A stretch of DNA of 64,000 nucleotides from a virus (lineage: Duplodnaviria > Caudoviricetes): positions 32,001 to 96,000 of IMG/VR virus record IMGVR_UViG_3300021952_000001; one strand, 5' to 3'. A model generated the notes under the pieces. That model did not search any database. It saw only the letters and a list, made by a program, of their open reading frames with translations, and had not been told where the DNA came from. The position numbers and the translations under genes are program-made. This document shows, piece after piece, positions 1,588 through 8,358 of this stretch. The first letter of the stretch is position 1. Every line of letters starts with the position of its first letter.

Positions 1588-1615
1588 AAAAAAGGCTACC
1601 ATTTCTGATAGCCTT
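1588..1615 (-). terminator. intrinsic terminator closing the ncRNA cluster
   Basis: Minus strand AAGGCTATCA-GAAA-TGGTAGCCTT followed by a T tract. Confidence 0.75.
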
Positions 1616-1748
1616 GTTGTTGAGATTGGACTCTACTTCCTCCGTAAGTACTCAACTCCTTCTCTGTGTGGATAGGACTTAACATTCATGAGAAGCCAAA
1701 TTTCTCCAATGTCTGTTGCTGTACATATTTGACATCAAGCAACTGCTG

Positions 1749-1934
1749 TGATTGAGACAGGATTCGAACCTGTATTGTTGTACACCATCTTATGTATTGT
1801 TTAGGTGTTATGTACACCATCTATGCGGTAACTTTGCCAAGACTCTGACCATAGCAATTTTTTTATATCACAAATACATAAAGCGTCTACCATGAAAGGA
1901 CCTTTAATATTCCTAACTATTCCGCCACTCAATC
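1749..1934 (-). ncRNA. expanded tRNA-Leu-like element (186 nt) with insertions in the D loop and anticodon arm
   Basis: Perfect 7-bp acceptor stem GATTGAG/CTCAATC plus discriminator A; TGGCGGAAT...GGTAGACGC D-arm signature of tRNA-Leu; T arm ACAGG-TTCGAAT-CCTGT; extended anticodon stem TTATGTATT/AATACATAA enclosing ~70 nt with no clear 7-nt anticodon loop. Confidence 0.7.
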
Positions 1935-2088
1935 ATTTAATAGTCTTTCCTATTAGTCACCTATGTTATTATTCGCTATTTAATAAATGTACACGTAATG
2001 TAACAGAATTGCAGATTAGCACTTCATAATAACGGCCAACATTACAAGGTTTGTAAGGAATCAATGTATCTACAATTCCAAGTTCTAG

Positions 2089-3210: not shown

Positions 3211-4581
3211 TTAAGAGATGATTTGTTCTCCTTGTTTAGAATATGCTGTAACAACATCATTTTCTTCCACCTTCACTTGCTTACCATCTGTTGCAACACA
3301 AAGATTTTTTAATTGATCGCTAAATTGCATTAATGATATAGCATTCACTTTATAAGGGAACTTCTCTGAATGCACTCTATCTTGACCATCATTGATGATT
3401 AAGATTTCTGGTTTCTCTTCTGACAAATCAATATCAAGATTGTGTAACTTATGATGATTAACAACTTGATCAGCTACATAGTTTACAATGTCACCAATTG
3501 CTGTTGTACCACCATCAGGTTCATTAGAGAACATTTGCCAGAATTGAATAACTTCCTCTCTATTAGTAACATGATGAAATTGAAGTTCTCCTGTGTGTTC
3601 AACAAAATAACTAAAGAACACTTCAGCTTCTCCTTTCATAACATATCTGAATCTATCTATAAGAATAGCATTAACCCAGATTTGTTTCTCATCATAATCC
3701 ATAGATCCAGAGTAATCCAAAAGAATAATAATCTTCTGCTTTTGTTCTTTTCTATCAACAGGAACATTAACTGTTAAGTCTTTAGTTAAGAACTTACTTC
3801 TAAAGTTAGGAAACATCTTTTGATATAGATCAATCATGTGAAACTGTGAATAGTCTCTCATAATCTTCTTAGCATACTGATCAGAGTTTGCTACAATCTT
3901 CTCCTCAACTTCTTTCTCCACTTTAAACTGAGTACCAAGATCACCAATGATAGAAATCTTATTCATGATCTCCATCTTTCTCTCTTTACTTAACTCATTA
4001 TAGTTTAGTTGTTCGTTGATTGTTGGATCAGAATATAATTCTCTATCAAATCCTAATGTCTTCTGCATATCTAGTTCATCTGACTTCTCACCTCCATCTC
4101 TTTCAGCATTACTACTTTGTAATTGAAGAAATATAGCAATTGCTTGCTCTAATGGTGTAAATCCTGGAATAAATTGATCATAAATGCTATCATATAGTTC
4201 TTTCTTTTGACTATATTGTCCTTTCAATTCATCATCTATATTTTCCCAGTCTGCAAGATCTTCTCTTAGATAGTCTTTCTCATCTAACATTTTGAAATAA
4301 CACACACGTGCTAACTCTTTGATAGTATCAATAGCCTCATCTTTCCAAACACTTGCTTTTCTTTTGATCTCAACCTTTGTTGGTGTAATATAAGACACAG
4401 GGTCTTTCACCATCAAATCAGCATCATCATCTTCAAATGCTGTTGCAAATGAAAAACCTGACCAACTAGTTCTAGACCAACTAGTTCTGCCTTTACTTTT
4501 GTAGCCACCACCATATGTGTAGCTATATGGATTATGGGCCTTTGAAGACCCATATCCATAATCAAATTCATCTTCCCACAT
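3211..4581 (-). CDS. von Willebrand factor A (VWA) domain protein, ViaA/CoxE-like partner of the AAA+ ATPase
   Basis: MIDAS motif LLDYSGSM, GGT, INDGQD; immediately downstream of a MoxR-type ATPase. Confidence 0.85.
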   Translation of the reverse strand: MWEDEFDYGYGSSKAHNPYSYTYGGGYKSKGRTSWSRTSWSGFSFATAFEDDDADLMVKDPVSYITPTKVEIKRKASVWKDEAIDTIKELARVCYFKMLDEKDYLREDLADWENIDDELKGQYSQKKELYDSIYDQFIPGFTPLEQAIAIFLQLQSSNAERDGGEKSDELDMQKTLGFDRELYSDPTINEQLNYNELSKERKMEIMNKISIIGDLGTQFKVEKEVEEKIVANSDQYAKKIMRDYSQFHMIDLYQKMFPNFRSKFLTKDLTVNVPVDRKEQKQKIIILLDYSGSMDYDEKQIWVNAILIDRFRYVMKGEAEVFFSYFVEHTGELQFHHVTNREEVIQFWQMFSNEPDGGTTAIGDIVNYVADQVVNHHKLHNLDIDLSEEKPEILIINDGQDRVHSEKFPYKVNAISLMQFSDQLKNLCVATDGKQVKVEENDVVTAYSKQGEQIIS

Positions 4582-4583
4582 AA

Positions 4584-5603
4584 TTATAGTTCTACTACTA
4601 TTTGTGCTACTTGTTGTTTCTTATCAAAAGCTTTCACTTTCTCACCAACAGCTTTAGTCAATGATGCAAGCATGTGTGCAATATCATCATTAACAGTTAA
4701 TTTCTTAACAGCTGCTAATTTGTTTTGAAGCTCTGTAAGATCTTTCTTGAACTGTTTTGTAGCATCACTAGTTGACATACTATTAGCTTCCAATAGATCA
4801 ATCAATTCAGAAATCTCTGCAGACATCTCTCTAAACTTGATGGTTGATTCAAATTTCTTGATAGCATCAGCAATTAATGATGGTTTCTTAGCAAACTCAG
4901 CAATAAATGTTAATGAATCTGGTCCACATTGCTCAAACACTTGGTAAGCTGTTACAGCTACACGAGGTGAAATAACAATACCATTCTTAGCATACTCTTG
5001 TAACAAGAATGGAATGATTGGATCAATGTTACCTTCACCAAACTTAGTTTCTAACAACTTGTTGTAAGCAATCTCTGTATAATTATCCCATACAACATTA
5101 AGTTCAAGAGGAAAACGCTCCATTAATGCTTTCAATGACATATTCTTAGAGAATTCCTCACGAGTTCTATTTGTACAACATACAATGAACTTAGTTTTGA
5201 TAGGAAACTTCTGTGTACCATTTCTGAATACACCACTTGAGATGATATCTTTCAATTGCTCCAAGATAAAATCTGGTGCATCAAACATCTCCTCGAAGAT
5301 AACATACTCATGGTTCATGAAACTATTCTCAACCAAGTATTCAATCTTACCTGATGCTTCAAATGTTGGTATGTTAAGACCACCAAACAATCTGTCTGTT
5401 GTCATACCTGTACCCATAGTGATGATATATGGATCAATTCCCTTCTCTTTCAAGAAATCTAATGTGATTTCTGATTTACCATGTCCACCTGGACCATATA
5501 ACACTACATTCTTGTTTGTAGCCATACCTACATTAAGGATAGACATAGTCTTATCCATAAATACAAATTTCTCTCCGATTGTTGTTGTTCTTTCTGTGTT
5601 CAT
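4584..5603 (-). CDS. MoxR/RavA-family AAA+ ATPase
   Basis: Walker A GPGGHGKS, Walker B VIFEEM, sensor CCTN, arginine finger ALMERF, DRLFG motif. Confidence 0.88.
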   Translation of the reverse strand: MNTERTTTIGEKFVFMDKTMSILNVGMATNKNVVLYGPGGHGKSEITLDFLKEKGIDPYIITMGTGMTTDRLFGGLNIPTFEASGKIEYLVENSFMNHEYVIFEEMFDAPDFILEQLKDIISSGVFRNGTQKFPIKTKFIVCCTNRTREEFSKNMSLKALMERFPLELNVVWDNYTEIAYNKLLETKFGEGNIDPIIPFLLQEYAKNGIVISPRVAVTAYQVFEQCGPDSLTFIAEFAKKPSLIADAIKKFESTIKFREMSAEISELIDLLEANSMSTSDATKQFKKDLTELQNKLAAVKKLTVNDDIAHMLASLTKAVGEKVKAFDKKQQVAQIVVEL

Positions 5604-7993: not shown

Positions 7994-8161
7994 TTATGCT
8001 ATATTAAATAGCTTATTAAGTTTCTCTTCTAGTTTTGTTTTCTCAATCATATAGTCCATATATGATATCATGTTGGCTCCATATCTAAGCTCAATTGCAT
8101 CAAGCTTAGAATACAGGACATCAATCTCTGACATCCTGTTTCTTACTACTTCCATTGTCAT
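7994..8161 (-). CDS. 55-aa hypothetical protein (MTMEVVRNRMSEIDVLY...)
   Basis: Manual translation; start overlaps the upstream stop (TAATG). Confidence 0.55.
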   Translation of the reverse strand: MTMEVVRNRMSEIDVLYSKLDAIELRYGANMISYMDYMIEKTKLEEKLNKLFNIA

Positions 8162-8358
8162 TAGTAGTTCTGTTTATCATCATGAATTGTTGCTGCAAAA
8201 AGCATAGATACTGAAAATCCAAAAAAAGCAATAGCTCCTCTAAGATGTATATCCCATTGACTAATGTCAAATGATGCTGCTATAAATGCTCCTATTAGAT
8301 AAAACAATATCATGAAGCTCACGAATGTTATTATTGATTCTTTCATAAGATTATTCAT
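8161..8358 (-). CDS. small two-TM membrane protein
   Basis: Two hydrophobic segments separated by SFDISQWD. Confidence 0.65.
   Translation of the reverse strand: MNNLMKESIITFVSFMILFYLIGAFIAASFDISQWDIHLRGAIAFFGFSVSMLFAATIHDDKQNY

Follow-up and report, generated by a model that had tools for sequence, protein, structure and literature searches.

A tRNA-Leu-shaped RNA gene without an anticodon arm behind a phage tmRNA gene, and similar elements in other viral contigs

Anatomy of the element

The window analyzed here is the whole stretch of 64,000 nucleotides (nt) that represents bases 32001-96000 of the 114,355-bp viral record IMGVR_UViG_3300021952_000001, a phage genome with direct terminal repeats. 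Its minus strand carries a transfer-messenger RNA (tmRNA) gene and, beginning 153 nt past this gene on the same strand, an element which combines the top half of a leucine tRNA (tRNA-Leu) with a long middle of another kind. The element is the sole one of its kind in the 114-kb genome. On the basis of the comparisons described below it is regarded, with moderate confidence, as a non-decoding tRNA-Leu-shaped RNA which undergoes tRNA-like processing, is possibly leucylated and belongs to a large phage family.

An earlier sequence-only reading of the window had described an acceptor stem, a Leu-type D arm and a T arm at this place, and all three were found, on the minus strand, at the positions listed in Table 1. 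U8 along with the Leu-type D arm matched the pattern TGGCGGAA ... GGTAGACGC exactly. The 5-bp T stem, the TTCRANY loop and the T (U48) before the T stem are likewise features of the family described below. CCA is not encoded 3' of the discriminator base A73, and the phage's own tRNA-Met is also without an encoded CCA. The D loop had been estimated to hold about 25 extra nt; the insert was confirmed and measures 28 nt, and the AGGA/TCCT mini-stem proposed inside it is present. The 12-nt direct repeat of the middle was also recovered.

Table 1. Coordinates of the tRNA-Leu-shaped element, its parts and the RNA features next to it in the window
Feature	Coordinates	Strand	Remarks
tRNA-Leu-shaped RNA gene, 186 nt	1749-1934	-	5' G at 1934, discriminator A73 at 1749; read directly
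Acceptor stem, 5' strand GATTGAG	1928-1934	-	7/7 Watson-Crick pairs with 1750-1756
Acceptor stem, 3' strand CTCAATC	1750-1756	-	followed by A73 (1749), then CAG
U8 G9	1926-1927	-	
U8-G9 and Leu-type D arm	1883-1927	-	GCGG 1922-1925, A14 A15 1920-1921, GGTAGA 1886-1891, CGC 1883-1885
D-loop insert between A15 and G18, 28 nt	1892-1919	-	AGGA/TCCT stem, 10-nt loop
Middle in place of anticodon and variable arms, 109 nt	1774-1882	-	
T arm ACAGG-TTCGAAT-CCTGT	1757-1773	-	T (U48) before T stem at 1774
9-bp stem, 5' strand TTATGTATT	1873-1881	-	pairs with 1790-1798
9-bp stem, 3' strand AATACATAA	1790-1798	-	
Internal hairpin TTGCTATGG-TCAGAGT-CTTGGCAA	1834-1857	-	read directly
Direct repeat copy 1, AGATGGTGTACA, 12 nt	1811-1822	-	overlaps hairpin 1804-1818
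Direct repeat copy 2, AGATGGTGTACA, 12 nt	1779-1790	-	
tmRNA gene, tag ANAQIEANMNKVFSLLGEEVAVAA	2088-2411	-	directly upstream of the element; ARAGORN and Rfam, 93.3 bits
Spacer, tmRNA to element	1935-2087	-	130 nt align with the equivalent spacer of L130 at 78% identity
Trailer RNA	1610-1748	-	conserved; aligned in 5 phages
Terminator-like hairpin	1592-1615	-	

Folding and absence of an anticodon arm

The 9-bp stem noticed earlier in the middle does exist, but a local hairpin at 1862-1882 (7 bp, 7-nt loop) competes with it and is favoured by RNAfold. The internal hairpin at 1834-1857 showed slightly shifted pairing in the unconstrained minimum free energy (MFE) structure, and the constrained fold pairs this stretch differently. 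For the whole element the MFE corresponded to a z score of -1.88, with 4 of the 200 shuffles folding at least as well. The perfect stems had been taken as an argument against random decay. With such a score, a middle that folds like its shuffles (see below) and a competitor for the 9-bp stem, the stems alone make a weak argument; it is the comparison with relatives which shows more than chance.

A canonical Leu anticodon arm (5 bp, 7-nt loop, U33) was sought in the 109-nt middle and none was found. The sole hairpin of 5 bp with a 7-nt loop has the loop ATTTGTG, which contains no Leu anticodon and is not conserved in relatives. The element cannot read codons. ARAGORN made no call on it, either in its default mode or with the -i option which the sequence-only reading had proposed as a check, and Rfam did not call it at the gathering score. 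The Rfam tRNA model (RF00005) matched only the 3' part, with 23.3 bits against a cut-off of 29 bits. A decoding tRNA-Leu was rejected on these grounds. The other sub-threshold Rfam matches, obtained at E up to 10 over 1400-2500, were a permuted tmRNA (24 bits) and a Phe leader at the terminator, and both were judged to be chance. The 24-bit match just extends into the first bases of the element; otherwise the Rfam tmRNA models match the neighbouring gene only.

Four metatranscriptome libraries were compared over 1400-2600 in the form of contigs, not reads. A 371-nt contig of library X4 covers 1748-2117 with 0 differences, and thereby the 3' end of the tmRNA, the spacer and the whole uninterrupted element. 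This contig shows no joint inside 1749-1934; contigs can miss rare or short forms. The single-library contig therefore indicates that an uninterrupted form exists in the RNA preparation, and it says nothing on ends or abundance. Its end lies at 1748, a single base beyond A73, and leaves one letter unaligned. A processed 3' end with a CCA tail could look like this, but a single contig end was not counted as evidence, nor was the lack of X4 contigs on 1400-1747 and 2404-2523. The tmRNA is represented by contigs over 2088-2403 in X4 and X16 and over 2091-2403 in X17, with adaptor letters at 2084-2088. Further RNA contigs start just upstream of the tmRNA gene, at 2524-2525 (X4, X17) and 2495 (X16), and run past 2600.

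The uninterrupted contig bears on the possibility that the element is an interrupted decoding tRNA, in which a functional tRNA-Leu would arise by splicing, the D insert and a portion of the middle being introns. The 9-bp stem, which encloses about 70 nt at the position of the anticodon arm, is in line with this, as is an anticodon-arm-like hairpin with a UAA or UAG triplet in locus L028 and possibly in L025 and L100. Against it, the contig is unspliced and has no joint. Rfam matched neither a group I intron nor any other intron over 1400-2500 at E up to 10, found only tRNA or tmRNA and nothing in the middles at the gathering score in 20 loci of the family, and returned nothing in the long L143 version described below. 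In an excision scan 22,800 in-silico deletions were tested with ARAGORN. Not one of the 4,560 variants which retained the full D insert was called, while trimming the insert led to calls in 3,547 of 18,240, among them Thr (1307), His (506), Lys (339), Gln (232) and Leu in only 92. Many trimmed variants are called because the top half is so tRNA-like. The middles of the syntenic relatives are unrelated and share no common exon-like arm. An interrupted tRNA-Leu is therefore given a very slight chance. A tRNA gene with a group I intron is likewise not supported, given the lack of an Rfam intron match and the inconsistent outcome of the excision scan.

The same site in related phages

To the non-decoding RNA proposed above, relatives of the phage bring a comparison of the site itself. 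Five related phages (L121-L125) were fetched through the neighbouring vWA-like protein (59-67% amino-acid identity), and L130 is a further close relative, whose tmRNA tag is identical to that of the window. In L121, L122, L123 and L130 the acceptor GATTGAG/CTCAATC and the T arm are identical to those of the window and are positioned behind the tmRNA; ARAGORN called no tmRNA in L122. L121, L123 and L130 keep A73 and possess a normal Leu D loop (AATTGGTAGA) with 2 nt between A15 and G18. The middles of the four are unrelated and measure about 93 nt in L121, about 20 nt in L122, and about 60 nt in both L123 and L130. The L122 element is a 68-nt miniature in which one small hairpin forms the middle. 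Relatives with conserved arms and variable inserts, which the sequence-only reading had suggested looking for, were thus found: the top half is strictly kept, also where the neighbouring protein shares only 59-67% identity, and the middle is replaced wholesale. That reading had also considered an insertion mutant of a normal tRNA-Leu gene or an assembly artefact. No relative has a normal tRNA-Leu at this site, and the element is neither unique nor an artefact.

In L121 a second tRNA-shaped element (8133-8226, plus strand) follows right after the first. Its acceptor is GATCTGA/TCAGATC, its T loop (GTGCAAA) is unusual, and it lacks a Leu-type D arm.

L130 is the closest relative. The 50 nt just 5' of the element are nearly identical between it and the window. 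The first 16 nt of the element and TGGTAGACGCT are the same in both, as are the T arm and the 3' strand of the acceptor, and the trailer is identical over at least 75 nt. The D-loop insert is absent from L130. Because its middle cannot be aligned with that of the window though the 3' flank is 100% identical, the difference points to cassette exchange, in which modules would be replaced, rather than to gradual drift.

Exchange of this type may also belong mainly to the DNA level, in that the 3' end of the tmRNA gene serves as a site of recombination or cassette exchange and the tRNA-like sequence as a target for crossover or homing. The element is precisely present or precisely absent in the interval that separates the trailer from the tmRNA 3' end, and the junction (...A-CAGCAG) is the same; this and the module exchange between otherwise near-identical loci fit such a site. 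The conservation of A73 and U48, the presence of the element in an RNA-library contig and the compensatory changes of the D-loop hairpin, which point to selection on RNA, do not. No host target was seen either, in a search of cellular genomes which covered the 5' half (next section). The probability of a mainly DNA-level feature is considered small.

A family of elements in viral contigs

The counterparts of the proposed RNA in other viruses were collected with a pattern of the Leu D arm having 15-45 extra loop bases, which gave at least 119 loci in viral contigs. An element was defined by a fully paired 7-bp acceptor stem (G-U allowed) along with a T arm, while A73 and U48 were not required. 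At least 58 elements were recognized by a script scan in 57 of the 119 D-arm-pattern loci listed. A broader scan of the loci collected yielded 73 distinct elements of 90-235 nt in 70 loci. A follows the acceptor (A73) in 60 of the 73 and T precedes the T stem (U48) in 72 of the 73, neither having been selected for; CCA is encoded in only 3. A tRNA or tmRNA lies within 1 kb of 36 of the 82 instances, and on the same strand in all 36 cases. At least two elements are present in 11 loci. The commonest acceptors are AGTCAGG (31) and GATTGAG (11). Two loci, L116 and L032, carry arrays of elements with the AGTCAGG acceptor and differing middles and D loops, on the minus strand and within the first 3.5 kb when read in element orientation. 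These arrays are spaced like a tRNA array, and some of their elements have no recognisable D 3' motif. ARAGORN detected suppressor-type tRNAs (anticodons CTA, TCA) at L116 10000-10072 and L050 1696-1768, which hints at stop-codon recoding in some of the phages bearing the family.

The D-loop insert forms a hairpin in most members, with z below -2 in 39 of 53. Across 26 aligned D arms 92.5% of the cells were paired in this hairpin and compensatory changes were observed at 6 of the 7 pairs. The covariation score was reached by 0 of 500 shuffles, and slid registers were only 33-58% paired. The insert of the window, with its mini-stem, aligns with the family hairpin and keeps 5 of the 7 pairs with a larger loop.

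The two variable parts are found in different combinations. The identical 28-nt D insert of the window is also present in L187 and L188 along with a different acceptor and middle, and near-identical inserts are present in L044, L185 and L186. Conversely, L040 and L049 have a common middle and different D inserts. L064 and L101 share a common 116-nt middle in which the stems differ by compensatory changes, as compared by eye. A 16-nt word from this middle matched only those two elements, apart from chance matches, and since the word search found only two, the members are too few for a covariation test. A conserved hairpin, ACGGGGAAAGACCCGT, is positioned about 5-25 nt upstream of the elements in L064 and L101. 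A long version, of 310 nt, lies in L143 (9810-10119, minus strand), with an identical copy in L146. Its acceptor is GATTGAG, and GNRA-type loops are abundant in its middle, which measures about 250 nt; it matched nothing in Rfam at E up to 1, group I introns included.

Outside the viral contigs the family was sought in three ways. Two 5'-half patterns, each composed of the 5' acceptor strand and the Leu-type D arm, had no match in 185,579 bacterial and archaeal genomes (one per species), where the 3' half was not searched. As both patterns matched nothing in cellular genomes, the family looks phage-specific from these sequence searches. By blastn the family member L102 had no match at E 0.01 in 50,697 cultured phage records. 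In the literature search, including passages of PMC7609411, no description of the family was found; older papers on T5 and T4 stable RNAs in subscription journals were outside its reach.

Comparison with known RNAs

The nearest named relative of the element is RNA1 of phage T5. The T5 gene rna1 (AY543070, 30501-30644) is known here from the record annotation, 'tRNA-like stable RNA with unknown functions', and its sequence passes the family scan. Like the element, it is situated in a phage tRNA cluster on the strand of the tRNAs. An acceptor closes its ends, and it has U8, a Leu-type D loop (CCGG-AATTGGTAGA-CGG), a 5-bp T arm (loop TTCAACT) preceded by T, and a middle of about 77 nt without a normal anticodon arm. 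It differs in having no D-loop insert, U instead of A as discriminator, 6 of 7 acceptor pairs and an unrelated middle, and it comes from a coliphage. The D-loop module and the unique middle are thus what is new in the window, in a phage RNA type which is known but functionally unexplained. The T4 genes rnaC and rnaD (species 1 and 2 RNA) are similarly annotated as small stable RNAs at the end of a phage tRNA cluster, and rnaC ends in a T-arm-like hairpin (CCGGGTTCGAATCCCGG). However, no Leu-type D arm was found in this locus by the family scan. There is no sign of kinship, and the likeness is in kind only.

With bacterial class II tRNA-Leu (RF00005) the element shares the acceptor, U8, the D stem and loop GGCGGAA..GGTAGACGC, the T arm, U48 and A73. 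It has neither a Leu anticodon arm nor a class II variable arm, and its D loop is 36 nt long compared with about 10 nt in the relatives with a normal loop. The set of acceptor, D stem and loop, T arm, U48 and A73 is reported, in the passages of PMC9976931 consulted, to define leucine identity in E. coli. Work cited in the same passages describes a minimal tRNA-Leu without anticodon and variable arms which is still leucylated by E. coli leucyl-tRNA synthetase (LeuRS), given A73 and the contacts of the D and T loops (PMC9976931). The element keeps the features of these minimal substrates, which are laboratory constructs with a normal D loop and no 28-nt insert.

The tRNA-like domain of tmRNA also joins a tRNA top half to a body of another kind; it matures like a tRNA, and the synthetase which charges it ignores the anticodon. 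The element lies in the presumed operon of a tmRNA. A leucine-charged relative of tmRNA, which enters stalled ribosomes or tags proteins alongside the neighbouring tmRNA, can therefore be imagined. Leu, like Ala, is charged without reading of the anticodon, and only the tRNA top half is kept, as in tmRNA. The element directly follows the tmRNA in the window, L121, L123 and L130, and in L162 the tmRNA is about 600 nt upstream. Unlike tmRNA (RF00023 and the permuted forms), it has U3-A70 and not the alanine-identity pair G3-U70, its D arm is complete, it contains no tag reading frame, and it is not matched by the tmRNA models of Rfam. No reading frame is conserved, the middle is down to about 20 nt in L122, most members of the family are in ordinary tRNA arrays without a tmRNA, and the phage is without SmpB. 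The chance of a function of this type is considered minute.

Two further systems resemble the proposed RNA in design. In engineered 'tRNA scaffolds' a foreign RNA replaces the anticodon arm, and the tRNA frame gives processing and stability. Such scaffolds are man-made, and in the natural family the D loop provides a further slot. In YrlA and Y RNA-like tRNA mimics a tRNA-like module is found inside a Ro-binding stem in permuted topology. A mimic of this class was rejected, as there was no Y RNA-type match in Rfam and the ends of the element form an acceptor stem as in tRNA.

Proposed nature, charging and mechanism

The sequence-only reading had offered a tRNA-shaped scaffold or decoy, or else a tRNA with a non-canonical intron. 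The first part is in agreement with the kept top half, the replaced middle and the LeuRS determinants of the element, and the intron found no support. In the model proposed here, the constant parts are the helix of acceptor and T arm, the elbow of D and T loops, U8-A14, A15-U48 and A73, which together represent the top half of a class II tRNA-Leu. Two slots would accept exchangeable RNA modules, one located between A15 and G18 of the D loop, the other in the region of the anticodon and variable arms. The element would be transcribed together with the tmRNA, freed by RNase P and 3' trimming and then supplied with CCA by a host enzyme, since the phage has no gene for a CCA-adding enzyme (PF01743 family). 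The phage also encodes no SmpB (PF01668 search), L/F-transferase or class I aminoacyl-tRNA synthetase, so any processing or charging would depend on the enzymes of the host. The RNA is predicted to fold into an L shape.

Host LeuRS could leucylate such an RNA, needing neither anticodon nor variable arm. The consulted passages of PMC9976931 report that the E. coli enzyme depends on A73, A15-U48, G18G19, A20a and the contacts of the D and T loops, whereas the anticodon and the long variable arm are dispensable and variants without both arms are active. A73, A14, A15-U48, G18G19 and A20a are all present in the element. The constant top half would then be a stable tRNA-shaped handle or decoy for host factors that bind tRNA, and the middle a payload or a fast-changing surface, which is a guess.

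Several points weigh against this proposal. Processing, CCA addition and leucylation are predictions. Charging may be impaired by the 28-nt insert, since it sits among D-loop elements (G18G19, A20a) which are essential in the E. coli work. The RNA evidence consists of one contig from one library, and such libraries may contain DNA. The 109-nt middle is predicted to be no more stable than its dinucleotide shuffles (z -0.10), the D hairpin of the window is weak (-2.8 kcal/mol, z -1.1), and the middle has no relative in the searches made, a 19-nt word from it having matched only within a coding region, by chance. No conserved partner protein was found by clustering of open reading frames, in which the top cluster was present in 8 of the 70 loci. 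L124 and L125 have no element, and in L125 the tmRNA end joins the trailer directly; the element is therefore dispensable.

Some of these points are shared by a neutral explanation, in which a former phage tRNA-Leu has been wrecked by insertions and duplications, is transcribed only through the tmRNA operon and has no function. The shuffle-like fold of the middle and its uniqueness, the 12-nt internal duplication, the absence from L124 and L125 and a D-loop hairpin which is degenerate in comparison with the family consensus are as expected of a wreck. A wreck does not account for a top half which is identical in relatives with a diverged neighbouring protein, for A73 and U48 kept throughout the family though the scan did not require them, for an identical 28-nt D insert in unrelated contigs, for arrays of elements with the same acceptor, or for the compensatory changes seen by eye between the middles of L064 and L101. 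The neutral explanation is judged rather unlikely.

An antisense role of the middle was also considered. In the rest of the phage genome the best match to it covers 17 of 18 nt (E 0.035); this was judged to be chance and the idea was rejected.

'Stable RNAs of unknown function', among them T5 RNA1 and T4 rnaC/rnaD, are long familiar from phage tRNA clusters. The element shows that RNA of the T5 RNA1 type, at least, is part of a large family, so far seen in viral contigs only, with a design rule of a constant leucine-tRNA top half and two exchangeable slots. The family is a natural counterpart to the tRNA scaffolds of RNA engineering. It also gives a testable hypothesis of charging without decoding, for which T5 in E. 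coli is a tractable model. For genome annotation, both ARAGORN and the Rfam tRNA model at the gathering score overlook the gene.

A more far-reaching view, doubtful at present though conceivable, is that the family is a natural phage-borne RNA display. Here the enzymes of the host (RNase P, CCA-adding enzyme, LeuRS), and perhaps EF-Tu, would recognise the leucine-chargeable top half, recombination between phages would change the contents of two cassette slots, and the RNAs might act as aminoacylated or tRNA-shaped decoys against a tRNA-directed host defence or a tRNA-using enzyme. The fast-changing middles and D-loop hairpins would then be the surface of an arms race.

Genome setting and neighbouring genes

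The phage has a G+C content of about 30-35%, and the public runs which contain the region are mainly freshwater or aquatic metagenomes. A Bacteroidota host is tentatively suggested, because the tmRNA gene resembles those of Flavobacterium and Cellulophaga phages with about 77% identity. The last 25 nt or so of the spacer between tmRNA and element, an AATAG..CTATT hairpin, recur ahead of elements in L134, L156 and L010. Downstream of the element, the trailer showed a multi-hairpin fold by RNAalifold over 5 phages, with compensatory changes at 4 pairs. It is far better conserved than the neighbouring proteins and probably represents a small RNA in its own right within the tmRNA operon. On the upstream side of the tmRNA gene a MoxR-type AAA ATPase (PF20030, PF07728) and a weak vWA-like protein are encoded (3211-5603, minus strand), and a calcineurin-like phosphoesterase is encoded downstream (393-1127).

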